In this document: positions 24,601 through 51,617 of the stretch, in pieces
How the letters are laid out: every line of letters begins with the position of its first letter
Numbering within the stretch: position 1 is the stretch's first letter
Translations under genes and position numbers: made by a program
IMG/VR virus record: IMGVR_UViG_3300044658_000017
Span: 24,639 to 88,638 of that record
DNA from: a virus
Lineage: Duplodnaviria; Caudoviricetes
Length of the DNA: 64,000 nucleotides
Strand: one strand, 5' to 3'
Notes under the pieces: generated by a model
Told to the model about the DNA's origin: nothing
What the model saw: only the letters and a program-made list of their open reading frames with translations
Database searches by the model: none

Positions 24601-27600
24601 TTAAGTATGAAATTTTCTATGATTAGCTATGATAATAAAAATAAAACATGGCACTCTAAAGTATATGATACTTTTCAAAGTGGCCTTGCTGCACAACTGG
24701 CATTAACATGGTACAATAATTTTATTGATAGTGATCTTGTACATATGGTTAATGAAGTGTATTCTCTTAATACAGACGAGGCACAAAAATTAGTGGATGA
24801 ATATGATTCATGGATAGGAACCAATGTACCAGTACTTAAGTCTGATATAAAGAATATAGTAGCTACTATAAGCATGATAACTGGTAAAAAGCCAGAAGTT
24901 ACTATCATGCCTACTGGTGAACTGAAAACTGAACTAGATGCTTTAAAAGAAGGAGAGAAAAAAAGATTTAAGTTTAGAAATATTGAGTATCAAATTCAGA
25001 AGAATGGTAATCAATTTAAGGCATCTTTCTTTAATAAAGCTCAATCAGTTAATCCTGAGAATGTAAGACAATGGTTAGAGAAAATAGGTATCAGGATGAG
25101 TGATGCCGGCTTTCAGGAGCTTATGAGCAATGGCTTATATCATAATTTTGAGAAGATTAAAGGTGATGGCTTATATACAAATCCAAATGGATTGTTCAGA
25201 ATATTAGCTACTGCACTTAGAACTGGTATAGCAAGTCCTAATAAAGACTTAGTTACTGGTGAAGGCAATCCTTTATTTCAATCAGTAGTTAAATCTTTAG
25301 CTAACCTAGAGTCAAACTTTAATACTTCTGTTAACTCTCCTAATGGTAGAGATAATGGTAAATCAATATTTGGTTTTACAGCACCTAAGTTTATTACTGA
25401 TAGAACAAGAGACTTAAAAACCAAAGATGGTAAAGTTATTCAAGAGCTTAGTACCATTTCCTTTTCCAAAAAGTCCTTGTGGCTTGATTTGTTAGTAAAC
25501 TCTGAGAAATTCAGAGATCAGTTTGAAGTTAGTCATATTGGATTAACTGCTCTGAAAGAGATGGGTAAGAAGATTTATCGTGATAATGGTATCACTAAGT
25601 TGTCAGATGTAGACCATGAACTTACTAAGTTGGTAATGTTTTGGGATACTAAACAAGGAGAAGTTGTATATAATAATCAACTTAATACTGCTAGTGATAC
25701 TACTATATCAATGAGGATGGCAACTATGTTTGCTCCTACTATGTCAGATAAATCCAATATGATGCTGTTAAAGACAGCAGTGCTTAATTTGGAAGATAAA
25801 CACTTTGTGCTTGATTCAAATGGTAATCCAACTTTAGGTAAGGAAGGAGTTAAGATATTATATGAGCAGGCTGTAAGACCTGAATTAATGAGAATGGTTA
25901 AACATGCTCAGTTAGGAGGTAAAACAAATATCAGTGCTTATGATAAGGGAGCTAAGATGTTCCTTTTAATTCCTGAATTAAACTATGTTAAGTTTAATGA
26001 AGATTTACTTTTAATAGATGCTATTGCTAATGGAGTACAGGAATTTAATCTTGAGTATATTGAAAGTAGACCTGAATTGATGAATCAGATAGCTGATGTA
26101 TTAAAGTCTACTTTAGATCAATTAGTGAAAGAAAAAATATCTGCATGGGATAAGTATGGTTTCTTAACTAAAACTCAGAATGGTGACATTACCGGAATAG
26201 AGTTTATGGATAAGAAATACTCCGATAAATTTAATGGTACCTCTAAAGAAAAAGTATATAAAGCAGCTATTGATTTTGAATTAAACTCAATGATAGCTAC
26301 AGCTAATAGCTTTATGTTATATGCTGGTGACCCTGCTATGTACTATAAATCTAAGGCTAAAGATTATATTACTATAGCTAGAGATACCTTTGTTAACGTA
26401 GGTAAAAGATTGGCTAATCAAATAGCTCCGGGTACTACTATTGCTAATAGTGAGAATGAAAGATATGTACAGTTATTTCTTGAAGATAGAAAAAGTATAG
26501 CTGAAGTACCTTTCTTGAAGTTTGCTACTAGAGTAAATGATGGTAAAGAAATCACTGATAAAGAAATTGAGAAACTCTTAAATGGTACTAAAGAAGAAAA
26601 AGAGAAGATTGCAGAGAAATATCCTAAATCTGCTGGTTATTTTAATATAGAAGGCTCTGATGCTCAAGAATACACTACATGGAAAGAACATCTTTCTTTA
26701 CTTGAGAAATTAGGTAAAACTTCAGATAGTATATTTGAAGTAACTCCTGATGAAATTCAGGAAGCAAAAGAGTTATTTTCTTCATGGGAAAATGGTAAGA
26801 AAGCACCTTTAACTAAACGTCAGGAAAAGTTAATAGGTAAAGTTCTCCAACCAATGAAGCCGGTATATACAGGTCAAATATATGACCCTACTCAAGATGC
26901 AATGAGAGTAGTGTATATCAAGTCTTCTTCATTTCCCTTAATACCACAACTCACTGCTGGTTTAGAAATAGACAAACTCCGTAAAAAAATGGAGGATATT
27001 GAGGCTAGAGAAAAGAAAACTGTAAGAGCTTCCTATCAAACAGCTAATAAGGTAGGTTCAGTTAACAATCCGGCAGTACTTTGGAAAGAGGGTAGTATAA
27101 TGGATGATGAAACATTAAACAATCTTGAAAAGAGTTCTCTTATCTTAGATAGAAAGAACTTTAGAATACAACAAGATGTACCCTTTAAGTCAGGAAAAAG
27201 ACTTGAAGATAAAATTACATTAGGTACTCAGTTAATGAAAGTACTTTTTGGTAATGGAGTTATTGATGCTGATGACTTTGAGTTGGATGGTAAGAAATAT
27301 AATGGCAAAGTCCTACATAAATTTTATAATGATGCATTTAATGATCTTATAAGAAATAAAAAAGCTCAATTATATGATGAATTAGGACTTGATGAAAGTG
27401 GACATTCTAAGGATTTAAAACATACATATAATAAGCTACAAAAACTTCTTAAAGATGAAGCTATCAACAGAGGATACCCTATTCAGGATATTGAAGGTCT
27501 TAATCTTGATGACAATGGTAATTTTATCACTCCTTTGTGGAGTTCTGCTAATAGTAACAGATACGAGGCTATGCTCAATGCTATCGTTTCTAATAGACTA

Positions 27601-43995: not shown

Positions 43996-44497
43996 TTTCT
44001 ATTGTTTGTGATGATGAATCTTCGTTTATAGGAACAGGATTACCTTCTTCATCAGATAATGAGACAACAGGAGAGTACTTACCTTTTTCATGCAGCATAC
44101 ACAACAAATCGAAATAGTCTGTAAATGTCATAGAGACTATACTATCAAACTCCGAAGGATGATTACCTCTGCCGGGGAGCTTATCATGTATTACAATAGC
44201 ATGATGTTTTCTTTCAGGATAGTGAGCAGGTAATTTTTCTACTGATGTATTTATATCTCTTAAAGCCTGTCTTACATTAAGACCATTTTGAGCACCAGCT
44301 TTAATTTGAGCATTTACCGGAACAAAAGCTAAGTCAAGTTTTCTATCATCTCTCATCTTTGAGACATATCTCATAGTAAGAGCTTCCTTCCAACCTGCTT
44401 CTCTAAATATTCTGGCATACTTTCTTTCTGCTTCGTTACCTATTCTTTTATTCCTCTTTCCCTGCTTTTTAAAGTCTCTTTTTTCTTGACTGCTCAT
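43955..44497 (-). CDS. Holliday-junction-resolvase-like PD-(D/E)xK endonuclease
   Basis: GNEAERKYARIF, LDLAF and NAQIKAG motifs of archaeal/phage Hjc-type resolvases. Confidence 0.7.
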   Translation of the reverse strand: MSSQEKRDFKKQGKRNKRIGNEAERKYARIFREAGWKEALTMRYVSKMRDDRKLDLAFVPVNAQIKAGAQNGLNVRQALRDINTSVEKLPAHYPERKHHAIVIHDKLPGRGNHPSEFDSIVSMTFTDYFDLLCMLHEKGKYSPVVSLSDEEGNPVPINEDSSSQTIENDNQNTTGDSSSV

Positions 44498-45165
44498 TAT
44501 AGTGAAAGGTTTTTAATAACAAGTTTAGTTAAATCCTTGTACATATTCTTAGCCTGAACAATATTTACAGGACGAATCTTAGGTACAGGAGTATGATTAT
44601 AACATGAAGTTAGGAGACTTCTTGTAATAATAGTATCTATCCTTTCGTTAATAACAGGCATAGCTATTTTTTCAAAATTTCTCCACATTAATTCATATGT
44701 ACTTTCCTCTGTGAATTTCTTATCTATCATAAGAAAGAATTGAGAATAATCAGGATTAGTCTTATCTATATGAAATAAGTGAGACTTATGTACTGCTATT
44801 ACTGCAAGAGGAACAACTTCTCCACTATTTTTTAAATGTACAAGTTGTCCTACTCTTGTAAGATAGATATTATCTACATTCTTCTTATCGAACCTTGTCC
44901 AAAGTTCACGATACATCATTATATTAAAGAAGTCTTCATAGACTTTCTTTATATATGGTACATGAATAGGAACATCTAAGCTATATAGTAATGACCTAGA
45001 TGTTCCTACTTGTAATAACTTTCCTGTTATCAAAGCATGATAAGGAATAAAGTTATTATCATCAGATGTTGAAGGATAATAAGAAGAAAGTCCCAAACTA
45101 CTTGGTTCTGCATTGCAGAATCTTGATTTGAAAAAGCCATCGAAGTTTATCTGGAACTCTCTCAT
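44497..45165 (-). CDS. Hypothetical protein directly downstream of E1/ThiF
   Basis: 222-aa ORF starting 11 nt after the ThiF stop. Confidence 0.65.
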   Translation of the reverse strand: MREFQINFDGFFKSRFCNAEPSSLGLSSYYPSTSDDNNFIPYHALITGKLLQVGTSRSLLYSLDVPIHVPYIKKVYEDFFNIMMYRELWTRFDKKNVDNIYLTRVGQLVHLKNSGEVVPLAVIAVHKSHLFHIDKTNPDYSQFFLMIDKKFTEESTYELMWRNFEKIAMPVINERIDTIITRSLLTSCYNHTPVPKIRPVNIVQAKNMYKDLTKLVIKNLSL

Positions 45166-45176
45166 GGGTTTGGGGA

Positions 45177-46322
45177 TTAAAAAGGTAACTCATTTGTGTG
45201 ATCATCAGTTGGGTCTTCTGGTATATCAATATCAGAAGGGTCTTCCTCCGGCTCAGAAGAGGGCAATTCCAAACTTGAAGAGTCTTCGTTTCTATCTTGA
45301 ATCTCCTCCTTTTCAAGACTATCAAGTTCATTAATTAGGTCATTGTAAAGTTCTTCTTCACTTTTATCTGATTCCTCACGATTATAAAATAATCTGGAAT
45401 CGGGAACTGGCAATTCTCCTGCTGTACCCGTAATAACTGGTTGTCCCCACTGATCTAAAGGAACTTGATTCTGAGGCATAAACATACGAGAGTTTTGCAT
45501 CTCTTTGTATAGTTCATTTACTTCTTCTTCAGTTAAATCGGTTTCTTCAGTAGTGCCTAATTGATGTAATTCTTCCGGGCCTACTTCATCAAATACTTCA
45601 GTTACAGCTTGAACACTATTATCTACTTCGACTTCATAACTAGAAGTATAACCAATAGGAATTATGTATTCCCAAAAGAAAGGATAATCTCTTGAAGTAT
45701 CTTTACCAAGAATACCGGCATACCAATTAGTAAACTTAGCTACCATATGTGCTGCAATCATAGCTGCACCATGAGAAGTTTGCTTTAAGGTACAATCCAT
45801 CTCTTCAACTTCACTATCATCAAAGAGATGTTTGGAAATATACTCTTCGATCTCTACCTGATTACCCCCTTTTATACAGAATATTGTAAGCTGCTCCATA
45901 GTAAGCCTGCCATCTATAAAAATAGCCTGCTTATTATTTCTGTTTTCTTCTTTCCACTTATGAAACATTATACTTCTGGCTTTCATATTGTCAAAGGCAG
46001 AAAAGACAATATCATTAGTCATAGTATCTGCTGTTACTTCTTCATTGTAAGGAATTATTTCTTCCTGACATATTTCTCTTACTACATCACCAAGAGCTTC
46101 TACCTTGCTTTTACCAATGCTTTTATGCATAAAACACTGGCCTGCCATATTTACTGCTTCAAGACTATCGAAATCAAAAACATGAGTTTCAAAGCCTGCT
46201 CTGTTTAATAATAAAGTAAGCCATGAACCAATCCCTCCGGCACCACCAATTAGTACTGCTGGTCTTACATCTTCCTGAAACCACGGAGCACCCTTAAATC
46301 TATCATACTTCTGTGTTGCCAT
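45177..46322 (-). CDS. E1-like / ThiF-family Ubl-activating enzyme with a long acidic tail
   Basis: IGGAGGIGSW nucleotide-binding loop, FDFDSLEAVNMAGQ, KSKVEAL, FDNMKAR and IDGR motifs. Candidate catalytic Cys177 (DCTLKQT). Confidence 0.9.
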   Translation of the reverse strand: MATQKYDRFKGAPWFQEDVRPAVLIGGAGGIGSWLTLLLNRAGFETHVFDFDSLEAVNMAGQCFMHKSIGKSKVEALGDVVREICQEEIIPYNEEVTADTMTNDIVFSAFDNMKARSIMFHKWKEENRNNKQAIFIDGRLTMEQLTIFCIKGGNQVEIEEYISKHLFDDSEVEEMDCTLKQTSHGAAMIAAHMVAKFTNWYAGILGKDTSRDYPFFWEYIIPIGYTSSYEVEVDNSVQAVTEVFDEVGPEELHQLGTTEETDLTEEEVNELYKEMQNSRMFMPQNQVPLDQWGQPVITGTAGELPVPDSRLFYNREESDKSEEELYNDLINELDSLEKEEIQDRNEDSSSLELPSSEPEEDPSDIDIPEDPTDDHTNELPF

Positions 46323-47538
46323 TTTGATTTAAGTTTAGTTGTGAGAATTTAGTTAGAATAAGTTCAAGCCCTGTTTTCATCGGAATTAACCATGAATAGA
46401 ATTGAGAATATACCTCACAGAATATAATAAATTCATTCATTGTATCTTTAAACTCTTCTTCGTCTGTACCATAGAGTTCTGTTTCATAGTAAGTGGCATA
46501 ATAGGTAGCAAAGTTTGATACTACCATATCAGTTACTATTTCACCAGTTTTCTCTTTATCTATCCTCATTAAAAGTTCAAGTAATTCTTCCATCCATGTT
46601 TGCATCCCAAAGTCAGGCTCTGAACCTCCATTCAAACAGAATGCAAAAAACTGATCGTGACCAAAGAAGTCTGGTTGTGCTTCGTCATCTTCAGGTTCTA
46701 TATCCCTGATGTTAGAGTTCTCAAATCTGAAGCTACGTTGAGAACTCTTAGTAAAATCCTCTGAACCCCACCCTCTTCTGGCAGAGTAATCAGGTACAAT
46801 AGTACTTACACCTTTATGTTGTTGTGCATGTACTTGTTGAGCTTTGAGAGCAGCATCTGCCTTAGCTTTCTTTTCAGCTTCAATTTTTTCTTTCTCTGCA
46901 ATTTCTTTCTTCACTTCTTCAAATGTTTCAGCAAATGAGTCATCAACAACTACTTCATCTTTTGGAAATAATAGCTTGCAGTCATACAAAAAGAGTGTGC
47001 TCTTAACTCCTTCTACCTCGAAGTTGTATTCATTTCCATCCTCATCAGGACAAACAAATTTCATTCCTTTACCAAGAAAAACCACCTTAGCTACCATATC
47101 CATGAAGTTATTAACGACTAAGGATAGATAGATATTGTGATTCATTGCATTCTCATGGAGTTCATCAATATCAACTCCACTAAAGAATACATTCATAGTA
47201 TTATGACTATGAATCATTCCATGTTTAGCCATGTAAAGATCATTTTTCTCTACAAACTCTAAACATTTTTCATCATATTCATAGGCAGTACTGGCAGCTT
47301 TACCTATATCTCTGATGAATATTTCTATTGGGGTGATGACCATATTTTCAGGGTCTTTTATAGTCCCATCAATATTATAAAATAACATACCAGACCACTC
47401 CACTCTTGGTATGTTCTTACATAAGAATTTAACTTTGTTTAGAAAGGCTTCTGTTATGTTCATTTTGATTAAGCCTTTCAAGGGTATACTCTCGTACCTT
47501 AATTTTGTTGCATACATGTTCGAGCTTGTGTTTGACAT
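46303..47538 (-). CDS. JAB/MPN+ (JAMM) metalloprotease
   Basis: E47 (VEWSG) ... H110-S-H112 ... S120-G-V-D123 form a complete JAMM motif. The true start may be a downstream Met. Confidence 0.85.
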   Translation of the reverse strand: MSNTSSNMYATKLRYESIPLKGLIKMNITEAFLNKVKFLCKNIPRVEWSGMLFYNIDGTIKDPENMVITPIEIFIRDIGKAASTAYEYDEKCLEFVEKNDLYMAKHGMIHSHNTMNVFFSGVDIDELHENAMNHNIYLSLVVNNFMDMVAKVVFLGKGMKFVCPDEDGNEYNFEVEGVKSTLFLYDCKLLFPKDEVVVDDSFAETFEEVKKEIAEKEKIEAEKKAKADAALKAQQVHAQQHKGVSTIVPDYSARRGWGSEDFTKSSQRSFRFENSNIRDIEPEDDEAQPDFFGHDQFFAFCLNGGSEPDFGMQTWMEELLELLMRIDKEKTGEIVTDMVVSNFATYYATYYETELYGTDEEEFKDTMNEFIIFCEVYSQFYSWLIPMKTGLELILTKFSQLNLNQNGNTEV

Positions 47539-48778
47539 ACTGTTTTATTTTCGGATTTATATACGGTTTACGTTCTCCGGCAAACTTAAGTTCACCTTCG
47601 ATTTTTAAATAGACTTTTTGACCCTTAAATATTAAAAAGTCTACATCATTAATCTTAACACTTTCTTCGGTAAGTTTAGTGGGGACAAAATAGCTTCCTG
47701 TGTCATCTTTATAAACTATAAAGTCTTCAGGCATTGATTGAGAATAACAATTCCTAAATAGGTTTTCAAACTTTTCATTATCCACTATCTTGTATTCTCC
47801 ATCTTCATACTTCCAATCAATATCTGGATAGTACTGTCCGAATATAGCTATTTTATTAAGAACATCTTTACAGTCATCTAATGAAGGAGTTGGAATATCA
47901 TTTGTCTTAGGTATTACATTCTCTATTCTTTGATATGGCCCTCCTTCGAGTGATTCCCAACTTACTACTGTTTGAATCATTAAAAGATAGGAATCGAGAT
48001 CACCTTGATTTTTATTACCATTAAAGTATTGCATAAAGTCAATGATCTCTCCCTGACCTAAGCAAAAGCTACCAAAATATACTTTAGGAGTACCCGGCTG
48101 TTTTTCATTCCAAGTGGAAAATGAAGCACTATGTAGATGACTATGTACGTACCCCATAGAATACTCAGCTAAAGTATAAGTAGTTTTAGTTCCAGACAGT
48201 CCTTGTCTAATTGTACCATTAATATCTATACCAAACTTAACAAAGAAGTCTTTCATATCAAGACTTTGCTTTCTTGAGTTCTTTATAGTTACTTCTGGAT
48301 AGTGAATAATAACATCGAAGCCAATTACTACAACTCCTACTGGATAAATAAAACTTTGATAAGAAGAATAAGTAGGATATATCAGATTAAAGAAGTCTCT
48401 TGTTCTTTGCCATCTATCACGACTATTATAATAATAGTCTAACATGTTTTGCTCTGCCTGCTCCCATGTTGTAGTAGAAGTCCTAAAATCTGATACAATA
48501 CTTGCATAATTTCTTTCGTGAAAGTAAACAGGTTGATACATTCCCTGTGTTATATATGTATTATTAAAACCCCAATGAAATATTATATCCCATCTATCAG
48601 GATATATAGCTTCTAAAGAAGGTATTAACATATTCAAAGTCTCTAAAACTGGTGGATGTATTCTACCTTTCTTTACCATTCTTTCGAGCCATTCAGAATT
48701 ACGAAAGTCCTGCCTTATAGACATTTTCTGATTAAATATCTTAATCCATGTTTCCCACTTTCTGTTTACATAAGACAT
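47429..48778 (-). CDS. Prokaryotic E2-like (UBC-fold) protein
   Basis: 'GYVHSHL' followed about 25 aa later by 'FCLG' (Cys239, nt 48062-48064), like the HPH...CLG signature of prokaryotic E2 families. Flanked by Ubl and JAB genes. Confidence 0.65.
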   Translation of the reverse strand: MSYVNRKWETWIKIFNQKMSIRQDFRNSEWLERMVKKGRIHPPVLETLNMLIPSLEAIYPDRWDIIFHWGFNNTYITQGMYQPVYFHERNYASIVSDFRTSTTTWEQAEQNMLDYYYNSRDRWQRTRDFFNLIYPTYSSYQSFIYPVGVVVIGFDVIIHYPEVTIKNSRKQSLDMKDFFVKFGIDINGTIRQGLSGTKTTYTLAEYSMGYVHSHLHSASFSTWNEKQPGTPKVYFGSFCLGQGEIIDFMQYFNGNKNQGDLDSYLLMIQTVVSWESLEGGPYQRIENVIPKTNDIPTPSLDDCKDVLNKIAIFGQYYPDIDWKYEDGEYKIVDNEKFENLFRNCYSQSMPEDFIVYKDDTGSYFVPTKLTEESVKINDVDFLIFKGQKVYLKIEGELKFAGERKPYINPKIKQYVKHKLEHVCNKIKVREYTLERLNQNEHNRSLSKQS

Positions 48779-48788
48779 ATAAGTTTAG

Positions 48789-48829
48789 ATTAAAAAGAGT
48801 AATCCCACACAAAGGCAGGATTACTCTTT
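48789..48829 (-). terminator. Rho-independent terminator between the Ubl and E2-like genes
   Basis: 12-bp stem AAAGAGTAATCC (48794-48805) / GGATTACTCTTT (48818-48829). On the - strand it ends in a T5 tract. Confidence 0.65.
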
Positions 48830-48853
48830 AAGTTATAAATGTACGTAGTTCAC

Positions 48854-49636
48854 TTAATAGTGTGCAATACCAGTTAAGTCTTTCATTAGCTCATCATGCT
48901 CTTCCAAACCTAACTCTTCTTCAGTTTTTACAGGTTTAGGAGTAATAGCTATCTGTAATTTAGAGATAGCTTCTTCAATATGTCCCTGATTAAGATGACC
49001 TTTGATAGTTTTGAGCATATTAATGCTCTCAGAAATAAGATCATTGGGAGTTGCTTCAGTAACTTTGTGTGTCTTTACTGATTCAACCACATCAGCAACA
49101 CCATTGTTTTCGGCTTTTACCTGACCTTTTACAGTCTTCTCCTTTTTCTTGGAAGGCTTTGAAATTTTAGCAGCTTTAGCTTCAGATGCTACCGGGGTAG
49201 TTTCACCAACAGCAATTACACCATTTTTCTTTTCATATTTGGCCACTAGAGCTTCTAATTCATCGGTTTTCTTCCGGGTATAGTTCTGGTCACCATTAAA
49301 GAATTTTTGAGCTTTATTGGCATCTAGGGCCAGTGCAGCTTTAATTTTTGCATACACTTCCTGTCTGCTGGCACCACCTTTAGTTTTTTGAGGATAAAGA
49401 TGTAGGTTGAAATTAGTTGCAGGCAATACTGCTTTAGGATGCTCCAATACTGACTTACGAATGTTTTCAATACATTTCATACTGTCCACATTGTAACCTT
49501 CCTGCTTTAAACGGGCTTTGAGTTCACCCCAATGACTACCAGTGAAGGAGATTTTGTAGTTGTTCTTACCTTGAGAGGAGAAGATAGTAATATCTCTTGT
49601 TACTACTTCTTGATTTACTTGTTGTTCAGTTGACAT
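48854..49636 (-). CDS. Ubiquitin-like (beta-grasp) domain precursor with internal KTKGG and a C-terminal extension
   Basis: Residues 14-88 show a beta-beta-alpha-beta pattern (ITIF..YKISF..WGELKARL...LP..FNLHLYP) ending KTKG87G88 (nt 49373-49378). Immediately upstream of the E2/JAB/E1 genes. Confidence 0.7.
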   Translation of the reverse strand: MSTEQQVNQEVVTRDITIFSSQGKNNYKISFTGSHWGELKARLKQEGYNVDSMKCIENIRKSVLEHPKAVLPATNFNLHLYPQKTKGGASRQEVYAKIKAALALDANKAQKFFNGDQNYTRKKTDELEALVAKYEKKNGVIAVGETTPVASEAKAAKISKPSKKKEKTVKGQVKAENNGVADVVESVKTHKVTEATPNDLISESINMLKTIKGHLNQGHIEEAISKLQIAITPKPVKTEEELGLEEHDELMKDLTGIAHY

Positions 49637-49659: not shown

Positions 49660-50691
49660 TTAAATAATGGGATTAATACCTATGTATTTAAGTACTTCTT
49701 GTGTGTCTTTCCTACCTTCTTTTTTAATAAAATCTGATGGGTCTTTGTGTGGGAATTGTCTTACAGGCAAATGTATACATCTTATGTTACAGTTTGGATT
49801 AACTCTAATAAATTCCTGCATTAATCTTTGTGCTGCTTCTTTTCCGGGCTGATCATTATCAAAGAATATCGTAACAAGTTCAAATCTTTGTGATAAGTCT
49901 AAGAGGATTTTGTCATCAGGAATACAACCTTCATTTTGTGTCCAAACTACAGACTTTAGGCCAAAACCAATGTTTCTTAATACTCTATGATCTTTGTAAG
50001 CCTTAGTAATGATTAACTCTTTGCCAATTAAAGGAAGATTGTGAAGATTACCTATATCATTTTCTGTACAATTACTTATCCATTTATACTTAGGATTATT
50101 GTAAGGCTGATATAGTTTAACATGATGTTTGAAGTTATAAGCATAACATACAGAAATAGGATTGAAACTTCTCTTGCCTTTTCTACTATCAATATGTACT
50201 GTTTTAACAATACCAACTTCGTCTTCTGTAAGATTTTCTGGTGTAATGATAAACTGTGACCAGTATATTTTATCCTTCTTTTCTATAGGTCTACCATCCC
50301 ATGTGATAATGGTGGGATATGGAATGATTTTACCTTGTTCCTGCTTAACTTCCTTTACTGGTTCGTAGTCTACTAAGTTAGTTGATAATCCAAATTGAAA
50401 TGCTACTAACTTAAGAGCTACAGGAAATGTACATTTGTGATATCTCATTACTGCTTTCCAGCAAGTAATATGAGTTTGTCCTGAAGGCTCTCCGAAGTCT
50501 ACGAATAATAAAGTACCATCTTCTACTTCTTCAAATCTACAATTGGGAGTCTTATCATTTCTAAATGGTGAAGTATACCTTTCTACTGTATTAATATTCT
50601 GCTGGAATATCCATTCAAAGACCTGTTCTTGTGTGATTTTCTGCAATAGTTGTTCTGGTAGGATTTCAAAATCATCATTGTAGCCATACAT
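49660..50691 (-). CDS. dnaG: DnaG-type DNA primase (TOPRIM)
   Basis: SPFRNDKTPNC, IITKAYKD, FFDNDQPG and KDPSDF motifs. Confidence 0.85.
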   Translation of the reverse strand: MYGYNDDFEILPEQLLQKITQEQVFEWIFQQNINTVERYTSPFRNDKTPNCRFEEVEDGTLLFVDFGEPSGQTHITCWKAVMRYHKCTFPVALKLVAFQFGLSTNLVDYEPVKEVKQEQGKIIPYPTIITWDGRPIEKKDKIYWSQFIITPENLTEDEVGIVKTVHIDSRKGKRSFNPISVCYAYNFKHHVKLYQPYNNPKYKWISNCTENDIGNLHNLPLIGKELIITKAYKDHRVLRNIGFGLKSVVWTQNEGCIPDDKILLDLSQRFELVTIFFDNDQPGKEAAQRLMQEFIRVNPNCNIRCIHLPVRQFPHKDPSDFIKKEGRKDTQEVLKYIGINPII

Positions 50692-50816: not shown

Positions 50817-51617
50817 TTACCATCCTGCTACTGTAGAACCAGCAGCACCACCACTATTAGTAGAACCAGCACCGGCACCACTATTCATATTTTGTGCAGC
50901 TTGTTCCTGTGCCTGAGCTTCTTCAGATTTTTGCTGATTAGCTAATGGGCCTTTCACATATCTACCATGTCTTTTGAACAGGTGAGTATTGTTGGCTTCA
51001 TCTACATAATACAATGCATTCTGATCATTATCAGAAGGGTCTGCTTTACGAACCTCTTTCCAGCTACCTACAGGTGCAATAGCAGGACATAACCACTTAC
51101 CATTTTTCATGCTTGGTGGTATCTCCAAATAGGTCTGCTTCTGACCTTCACGAAGATTCCACTGATATTGCATGAAAATATCCAGCTTTCTTTCTTTGAA
51201 ATCTGCTGGTAACACACTGGCACAAACCTGTGCAAATTGTTTGAAGCTGGTAACAGGCTTACTAAATGCTGCCATTAGTTGATCATCTGTTACAAAGCAC
51301 TTCAGGATATGAGTAATAACACTATTCAGGGTTTGAACAGCATCACGAAATTCCGGTGCAGAAGGGTCAGTAACTTCCTGATTGTTTTTATCAAAGGCTT
51401 TAGTGATTGGAAATTTCCGGTATGATTTTTCAGTGCCATTGATCTTAAAGATAATATCAATAGCTTCCTGTTCAGCACCATCTTTACCACCATTGGGAAT
51501 CCATTCAAATTTCTCTAAGGTAGTAACTCCTGCATTAAGACCAAAGACAAAAGGAACTGACACCTGTACGTCATCGGAGGCATAACCATACATGTTGTTA
51601 ACTGGTTCATTAGCCAT
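50817..51617 (-). CDS. Putative single-stranded DNA-binding protein (crAss type)
   Basis: 266 aa between the AAA/HTH genes and the primase. Beta-rich N-half and a flexible Gly/Ala tail. Family inferred from position only. Confidence 0.4.
   Translation of the reverse strand: MANEPVNNMYGYASDDVQVSVPFVFGLNAGVTTLEKFEWIPNGGKDGAEQEAIDIIFKINGTEKSYRKFPITKAFDKNNQEVTDPSAPEFRDAVQTLNSVITHILKCFVTDDQLMAAFSKPVTSFKQFAQVCASVLPADFKERKLDIFMQYQWNLREGQKQTYLEIPPSMKNGKWLCPAIAPVGSWKEVRKADPSDNDQNALYYVDEANNTHLFKRHGRYVKGPLANQQKSEEAQAQEQAAQNMNSGAGAGSTNSGGAAGSTVAGW

Follow-up and report, generated by a model that had tools for sequence, protein, structure and literature searches.

The 64,000-nucleotide stretch of viral DNA analysed here (the window; positions 24,639 to 88,638 of IMG/VR record IMGVR_UViG_3300044658_000017, a crAss-like phage of the Caudoviricetes) comes from a virus record of 88,638 bp, whose completeness is estimated by CheckV at 93%. 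On the minus strand of the window four consecutive genes in the same orientation span positions 45177-49636 and encode, in this order, a ubiquitin-like protein (Ubl) made as a precursor, a protein resembling ubiquitin-conjugating enzymes (E2), a metallopeptidase of the JAB/JAMM type and a ThiF-type relative of ubiquitin-activating enzymes (E1). A first-pass annotation, made by reading the sequence alone, had proposed that these genes form a co-oriented Ubl-E2-JAB-E1 set in the replication arm, and the arrangement was confirmed at these positions. The same annotation had suggested that the phage thereby carries its own protein-conjugation machinery, a proposal which predicted folds, residue invariance and synteny support as the best reading of the locus, and which we consider probable. 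The genes of the cassette and their features are as follows.

48854-49636, minus strand: Ubl precursor gene, 260 amino acids; beta-grasp domain at approximately residues 12-86 (nt 49379-49603)
49373-49375, minus strand: codon of the invariant Gly88 of the Ubl, the predicted site of cleavage and activation
Following Gly88, minus strand: C-terminal extension of the Ubl, 172 amino acids, variable, helical and rich in Lys and Ala
47429-48778, minus strand: gene of the E2-like protein, 449 amino acids; UBC-like core at approximately residues 40-315, with large insertions
48679, minus strand: alternative start of the E2-like protein at Met34, where the public gene call begins, giving 416 amino acids
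Following the H212-S213-H214 motif, minus strand: invariant Cys239 of the E2-like protein, the candidate catalytic residue
Residues 320-449 (approximate) of the E2-like protein, minus strand: C-terminal domain with no fold assigned
46303-47538, minus strand: JAB/JAMM metallopeptidase gene, 411 amino acids; catalytic domain at approximately residues 25-180, C-terminal half helical
45177-46322, minus strand: gene of a minimal E1/ThiF-type adenylating enzyme, 381 amino acids; adenylation domain at residues 1-228 (nt 45639-46322)
45180-45638, minus strand: acidic tail of the E1 (residues 229-381), terminating ...TDDHTNELPF

The ubiquitin-like protein and its peptidase

The first gene product had been read as a beta-grasp-like domain ending in KTKGG. 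The motif (K84-T-K-G-G88) is present and the beta-grasp fold is predicted confidently: in an AlphaFold2 model derived from an alignment of 71 sequences the mean predicted local distance difference test score (pLDDT) was 83, and at least 95 over residues 11-80, while the strand-strand-helix-strand-strand topology follows the beta-grasp order. The best Foldseek matches to this model were DWNN, UBX, SUMO1, ubiquitin and ISG15, at a probability of 1.0. At the sequence level, none of the Pfam families, ThiS included, matched the Ubl proteins. Gly88 is the sole invariant column in the alignment of the family (71 of 71 homologues), and it closes a K/Q-x-K-x-G motif in which the penultimate position is occupied by Ser in 57 homologues, by Ala in ten and by Gly in two; the protein gp79 of phage crAss001 displays KIKSG at the equivalent position. 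All 71 homologues extend beyond this glycine, by 1 to 252 residues (median 124). The tails are short (1-5 residues) in seven of these proteins, and the long extensions hold some conserved helical sequence. Judged from these sequences, the Ubl homologues are all made as precursors, the pattern expected of processed modifiers, and the presence of the tails explains why a peptidase gene is constantly found alongside. One relative carries two tandem Ubl genes upstream of its E2-like gene (L044, 4658-5104 and 5176-5649).

The five JAMM protease residues recognized in the third gene product (E47, H110, H112, S120 and D123) are all present and are all invariant in 53 sequences, and the complete motif, E47...H110-x-H112-x7-S120-x2-D123, fits the JAB/JAMM signature. 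The window protein on its own matched Pfam Prok-JAB with an E value of 0.16; the Pfam family was matched by 50 of the 53 members, the best E value being 1.4e-7, and it was these matches that settled the assignment. A PDB profile search with the same protein gave matches that were rejected as spurious, as they paired helical-repeat proteins with its C-terminal half.

A minimal activating enzyme

The fourth gene product was initially described as a ThiF/E1 protein bearing the adenylation motifs and a candidate catalytic cysteine, Cys177. This description was borne out, as G27/G29 and C177 are present and belong to a set of residues (G27, G29, D50, D52, N58, Q62, K73, D111, R116, R139 and C177) that are invariant in 51 sequences. 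The protein matched Pfam ThiF with an E value of 6e-16 (58.8 bits, against a cut-off of 28.1), and the profile of its family matched the structures of UBA5, MccB, Uba1, SAE2, NAE, ThiF, MoeB and Cap2 with values of 1e-12 to 1e-6. Both hallmarks of a Rossmann-type adenylation domain, the GxGxxG loop and the catalytic Asp, were found. C177 is the single invariant cysteine of the family, and the HMMER alignments to solved E1s end at residue 121. In most of 64 homologues the core of the enzyme comprises one domain of some 228 residues, to which different extras are attached: the window protein has a 153-residue acidic tail at its C-terminus and crAss001 gp76 approximately 150 residues at its N-terminus. 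Based on these sequence features the E1 is a minimal ThiF-type adenylation domain with a candidate catalytic Cys177.

It could be argued that the Ubl is not a modifier but a cleavable N-terminal module, which helps to fold, deliver or time the release of the variable C-terminal extension, a function that has been proposed for the tail-assembly Ubl of lambda with its JAB, and that the E1 and the 449-residue protein act on another substrate, such as a peptide or nucleotide carboxylate, in the manner of MccB, PaaA or TcdA. The long extensions of most homologues (the median of 124 residues and the conserved helical sequence described above) are consistent with this explanation, as are the presence of MccB, PaaA and TcdA among the top structural matches of the E1 and the precedent of a phage Ubl and JAB pair that is accompanied by neither E1 nor E2 (PMC1779556). 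The seven Ubls with tails of 1-5 residues argue against it, however, indicating that phages can do without the extension even though they retain the Gly and the genes of the JAB, the E1 and the E2-like protein. In addition, a relay would account for the finding that the E1 and the E2-like protein each have an invariant Cys. We consider the cleavable-module explanation very improbable.

The E2-like protein

The second gene product had been described as an E2-like protein with an HSH...FCLG signature containing Cys239. The residues of this signature, H212-S-H214 and F238-C239-L-G241, are present, and at the sequence level no E2 family was recovered. The structural matches to the model were almost exclusively UBC/RWD folds, with modest Z scores of 5-6. 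The UBC superfold dominated in both structural searches performed with the model, the matches including the E2 domain of BubB from Citrobacter; Foldseek, queried with the E2-like model, found nothing. The ESM Atlas provided two weak but concordant leads for the protein, UQ_con and Prok-E2_D.

Eight residues of the E2-like protein (S213, H214, C239, G241, E275, S276, G279 and P281) are invariant in 66 sequences. The order of the invariant positions is N167, S213, H214, C239, G241 and E275, with no His following the Cys, and in the model both Cys239 and the HSH motif fall in the region that connects the sheet to the long helices. In canonical E2s an HPN motif precedes the catalytic Cys, which is likewise sited between sheet and long helices. 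By analogy, the order of HSH followed by Cys239 matches the HPN...Cys of canonical E2s, which makes Cys239 a candidate for the catalytic residue. An hhalign comparison of the E2-like family with Prok-E2_B domains, for which Cap2-type E2 domains were taken from five genomes of a sample of the phylum Bacteroidota, returned a probability of 0.1, and a Pfam scan of 16 members of the family gave zero matches, Prok-E2_A, C and E being covered by the general Pfam scan only. On the strength of its model the identification of this protein as an E2 is moderately supported, and it is the weakest link in the interpretation of the cassette.

Conservation of the cassette among phages

Co-occurrence of the four genes in related genomes, on which the original proposal depended, was explored through a synteny survey. 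A scan of IMG/VR with the alignment of the E2-like protein yielded 80 loci, whose open reading frames (ORFs) were searched with iterated hidden Markov models (HMMs) of each window protein. The order Ubl-E2-JAB-E1 proved to be fixed in 70 of 81 loci, and most of the 11 loci without the full order are interrupted by contig ends. The genes of the cassette abut or overlap across the related loci. In the window, the E2-like gene overlaps at its 3' end with the start of the JAB gene, by 110 nt and out of frame (47429-47538, minus strand), and an overlap between these two genes is present in nearly all related loci (median 86 nt when the longest ORFs are used). The overlap may couple translation of the two genes, stem from a true start that lies further downstream, or be a site of recoding.

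A megablast search of phage records with the cassette returned no close DNA relative, and a scan of IMG/VR with the E1 alone as single query returned nothing. At the protein level, the E2-like protein, JAB and E1 were found together in the FpV4-like phages of Flavobacterium psychrophilum (where the E1 is 47% identical), in the Bacteroides phage crAss001, the PhiCrAssBcn isolates, DAC15 and Kolpuevirus, and in the uncultured phages cr85, cr106, cr111, cr112, cr126 and cr128. All of the named crAss-like matches that were checked belong to the subfamily Asinivirinae of the Steigviridae. In crAss001 the block consists of the primase gp80 followed by gp79, gp78, gp77 and gp76, the last four (gp79-76) constituting the cassette; the record labels gp77 a 'metalloprotease domain containing protein' and gp76 a 'thiamine biosynthesis protein, ThiF', while the other two cassette genes are labelled 'hypothetical' in public records. 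In FpV4 the cassette is gp53 to gp50.

The E2-like family is large, with 3,357 representatives at 50% identity in a library of 1.8 billion proteins. Relatives of the E2-like protein among 185,579 prokaryote species genomes were limited to four loci, all on contigs of metagenome-assembled genomes (MAGs), in a scan that used a single peptide pattern and that can miss distant relatives. One of the four (L083) is on an archaeal MAG assigned to the Nitrososphaerota and another (L084, 12558-27421) on a 639,747-bp contig of a MAG labelled Bacilli bacterium; these two copies may belong to prophages or to phage contigs that were binned wrongly, or they may be genuinely cellular.

Inserts of 0.2-1.3 kb interrupt the JAB or the E1 gene of several relatives, leaving two ORFs in place of one (L075, L007, L008, L014, L022, L029, L031, L044, L059 and L072). 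In L075 (9237-9517) the insert contains a group I intron (Rfam RF00028, 89 bits), and an 'endonuclease' is annotated within the JAB region of Fpv20. Selfish elements appear to target the conserved JAB and E1 genes.

Points against conjugation and the sulfur-carrier alternative

The residues identified in the four proteins are not there by chance, as they are invariant across the homologues (71, 66, 53 and 51 sequences for the Ubl, E2-like, JAB and E1 families, respectively). Taken together, fold, invariance and gene order indicate that the four genes probably encode a phage-run, Bil-like Ubl conjugation cascade that would proceed through thioesters. The parts of such a cascade would be a Ubl and an E2 that are both orphans at the sequence level, and a minimal E1 of the homodimer type.

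Several observations weigh against this interpretation. The E2-like protein matched nothing in Pfam, NCBIfam, PADLOC or a PDB profile search, and UQ_con, Prok-E2_B and Prok-E2_D had no match in the genome at E values up to 10. In the E1, Gly61 replaces the Arg of the usual 'RQ' motif and the best matches among the curated NCBIfam models are ThiF models. Finally, the related loci are all of one phage lineage, and the conserved gene order is thus not independent evidence of a shared function.

A rival explanation is that the Ubl is a sulfur carrier, similar to those of ThiS/ThiF, MoaD/MoeB, TtuB/TtuC/TtuD or CysO/Mec. In such a scheme the Ubl, once trimmed by the JAB and adenylated by the E1, is converted to a thiocarboxylate, from which the 449-residue Cys protein inserts sulfur into a nucleic acid, nucleotide or cofactor, with no protein being tagged. 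In addition to the ThiF models that head its curated matches, the E1 has the small, single-domain form typical of ThiF/MoeB; sulfur metabolism offers examples of neighbourhoods in which Ubl, JAB and E1 occur without conjugation (Iyer et al. 2006, PMC1779556), and the support for the E2 assignment is moderate. In contrast, that protein resembles UBC folds and no sulfurtransferase. The first-pass annotation had remarked that no sulfur-transfer, thiamine or molybdopterin genes lie near the cassette, and this holds for the whole 88,638-bp genome, in which rhodanese, ThiG, MoaE, PP-loop ATPase (ATP_bind_3), cysteine desulfurase (Aminotran_5) and ThiS all found no match. The lack of sulfur partner enzymes in the whole genome, together with the lack of a ThiS-family match to the Ubl, weakens the sulfur-carrier explanation and does no more than that, since host enzymes could still supply the sulfur. 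We regard it as distinctly unlikely. A role in thiamine biosynthesis, the function implied by the label of crAss001 gp76, was rejected, as the searches of the phage genome matched neither a ThiS carrier nor any of the sulfur-transfer enzymes listed above.

Comparison with known systems

The closest parallel to a conjugation cassette of this composition is provided by the Bil systems, bacterial ISG15-like anti-phage operons (PMC10557695; bioRxiv 10.1101/2023.09.04.556158; PMC11601596). The Bil genes are ordered BilA-BilB-BilC-BilD, corresponding to Ubl, E2, JAB and E1 (PMC11601596), and BilA requires trimming by its JAB (PMC10557695). Similar to Bil, the phage cassette consists of the same four parts, as separate genes and in the same order; trimming of the Ubl would expose a C-terminal Gly, a ligase (E3) gene is lacking, with the E2 presumed to choose the target, and the conserved Cys in E1 and E2 implies a thioester route. 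The two differ, however, in location, the phage cassette residing in the replication module of a lytic-type phage and Bil in bacterial defence islands, and in the construction of each conjugation component. The phage E1 is one adenylation domain of around 228 residues, whereas the Bil E1 has tandem inactive and active domains and a Cys-domain. The phage E2 is 380-450 residues long, with large insertions and an extra C-terminal domain, and displays the motif order HSH...C...E in place of the CEHH motif of Bil E2s (PMC10557695). The phage Ubl has one beta-grasp domain, which closes with K-x-K-S-G and in most cases is followed by a long tail. The PADLOC models revealed no similarity beyond the generic E1 fold. 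Thus, the single-domain E1 and the E2 without a CEHH motif place the cassette outside Bil.

Bub systems (6E/DUF6527; types I and II) fuse Ubl with E2, JAB with E1 or E2 with E1 and lack the catalytic Cys, using Tyr/Ser oxyesters (PMC11601596), whereas the phage genes are separate and the Cys residues of the E1 and the E2-like protein are invariant. Bub also includes the DUF6527 serine protease BubE, which the phage lacks: PF20137 (DUF6527) had no match in the 88.6-kb genome at E values up to 1. With the type II cyclic-oligonucleotide-based anti-phage signalling system (CBASS) and its Cap2/Cap3 proteins the cassette shares the general E1 adenylation domain (Cap2 structures, 6e-7; PADLOC E1-E2 models, 2e-8) and a JAB peptidase. 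In CBASS, however, the E2-E1 fusion Cap2 conjugates the CD-NTase itself and there is no separate Ubl; when profiles of the phage E2-like family and of Cap2-type E2 domains were compared, no match emerged. PRTRC, a cassette of mobile elements (plasmids and integrative and conjugative elements), resembles the phage cassette in combining a small ThiF-like protein with small partners. Membership was rejected, as the E1 scored 28.9 bits against the PRTRC_ThiF cut-off of 144.75; PRTRC families had no match to the Ubl, E2-like or JAB proteins, and a PRTRC ParB was not found in the genome. The cassette therefore falls outside all four of these systems.

Among phages, lambda and T1 encode a similar pair, namely the tail-assembly Ubl TAPI, a beta-grasp protein in which an extension follows a conserved C-terminal Gly, and the adjacent JAB-containing TAPK (Iyer, Burroughs, Aravind 2006, PMC1779556), but this tail Ubl is without E1 and E2 and is located in the tail module rather than the replication module (PMC1779556). 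This Ubl and JAB pair is the only phage precedent found in the literature searched. Literature linking crAss-like phages or Crassvirales with ThiF, ubiquitin, JAMM or E1 was not found in that search, from whose scope subscription journals were mostly absent.

As the characterized prokaryotic Ubl-E1-E2-JAB systems all operate in phage-host conflict (PMC11601596, PMC10557695), the cassette could be viewed as a counter-defence kit, which either strips or out-competes host Ubl tags of the Bil or CBASS Cap2 type, or tags and disables a host defence protein. In a sample of 401 genomes from the phylum to which a Flavobacteriales genome belongs, five had Cap2-type E2-E1 genes. Set against this are the fixed place of the cassette in the core replication module of a very large and old lineage (the 3,357 clusters at 50% identity mentioned above), rather than in a variable region, and the outcome of the comparisons with components of Bil, Cap2 and Cap3, in which the general fold was the only similarity found. 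Thus, the position of the cassette is better explained by a housekeeping role in infection. We consider a dedicated counter-defence kit unlikely, and it should be emphasized that counter-defence represents a possible role of the conjugation cascade and not a different mechanism.

Genomic setting and a candidate fifth component

The cassette is flanked by genes of DNA replication and recombination, and the entire arm in which it lies is coded on the minus strand, as indicated by GC skew. Upstream are a Toprim primase, a gene resembling those of single-stranded-DNA-binding proteins (SSBs) and a Sak4-like annealing protein; downstream are a 222-residue protein of no known family, a RusA-like resolvase, an exonuclease VIII-like protein and a NUDIX protein. 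The immediate neighbours are as follows.

49660-50691, minus strand: DNA primase (Toprim; PHROG DNA primase, 1.5e-52), a conserved upstream neighbour outside the cassette
44497-45165, minus strand: candidate fifth component, 222 amino acids, of no known family, starting 11 nt past the E1 stop codon

In 76 of 81 related loci the gene upstream of the Ubl is likewise a primase. No terminator-like sites were found on the minus strand within the cassette, and the cassette genes probably share a transcript with the replication and recombination module to which they belong.

The 222-residue family is present, according to the iterated HMMs, in 37 of the 81 loci, and in 36 of these 37 its gene is coupled to the E1 stop codon (-11 to +11 nt). 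Pairwise BLAST similarity between the window protein and FpV4 gp49 was not significant, and Pfam, a PDB profile search and the ESM Atlas provided nothing usable for it. We propose tentatively that the protein is a fifth partner of the cassette; the link between members of its family is made by iterated HMMs only.

Long versions of the 222-residue family end in acidic peptides, L[IV]DDTE, ...EDLPF and ...DNLPF (L001, 6678-7766; L078, 8595-9743; L014, 9315-10403), and in L014 a further ORF directly after the E1 ends ...DDIPF. The SSB-tail-like end ...TDDHTNELPF is carried by the E1 itself in the window and an end of this type by the product of the next gene in relatives. These termini suggest, at the level of sequence, that the E1 and the downstream product share an acidic docking peptide. 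The SSB-like protein encoded in the window (phrog_15339; 50817-51617, minus strand) has the C-terminus ...STVAGW, without an acidic ...PF tip. ORFs of 185-260 residues upstream of the cassette in six related loci end ...[DEKS][LI]PF, an observation made without assuming that any of them is homologous to SSB.

Proposed mechanism and significance

The features described above can be assembled into a pathway for conjugation. The Ubl is translated as a precursor, as its sequence demonstrates. The JAMM peptidase would then cleave after Gly88 of the K-x-K-[S/A/G]-G motif, and the E1, to judge by its conserved residues, would adenylate Gly88 and subsequently hold the Ubl as a thioester on Cys177. Transfer of the Ubl to Cys239 of the UBC-like protein would follow, the extra C-terminal domain of that protein probably selecting the target, and the Ubl would end on a lysine of at least one phage or host protein, from which the JAMM enzyme could release it again. 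An acidic peptide that resembles the tail of SSB, carried by the E1 or, in relatives, by the product of the next gene, hints that this machinery is recruited to proteins of replication or repair. What the phage gains may be host take-over, control of replication or counter-defence. Protein tagging, as set out here, is a predicted and likely function of the cassette.

A broader proposal, which we advance tentatively, is that a very large lineage of tailed phages, among them the crAss-like gut phages of the Steigviridae and the FpV4-like phages of Flavobacterium, runs a complete Ubl-E1-E2-deubiquitinase tagging system as part of its core replication programme, and that the acidic peptide recruits the machinery to targets among replication and repair proteins.

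Prokaryotic Ubl conjugation, as exemplified by Bil, Bub and CBASS Cap2, has been studied only as a weapon of bacteria against phages. Here the same Ubl-E2-JAB-E1 logic appears in the form of a fixed core module of phages themselves. If the broader proposal above is true, ubiquitin-type conjugation among prokaryotes and their viruses would serve the virus as a tool in addition to defending the cell. The cassette is carried by cultured, tractable systems, namely crAss001 with Bacteroides intestinalis, DAC15, and FpV4 with Flavobacterium psychrophilum. Were conjugation to be demonstrated, it would add a new, testable layer to the infection biology of crAss-like phages, and the Ubl and E2 families described here, which escape sequence profiles, would be new additions to both. 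Such a demonstration would also bear on where Ubl cascades arose and on how they moved between viruses and cells.

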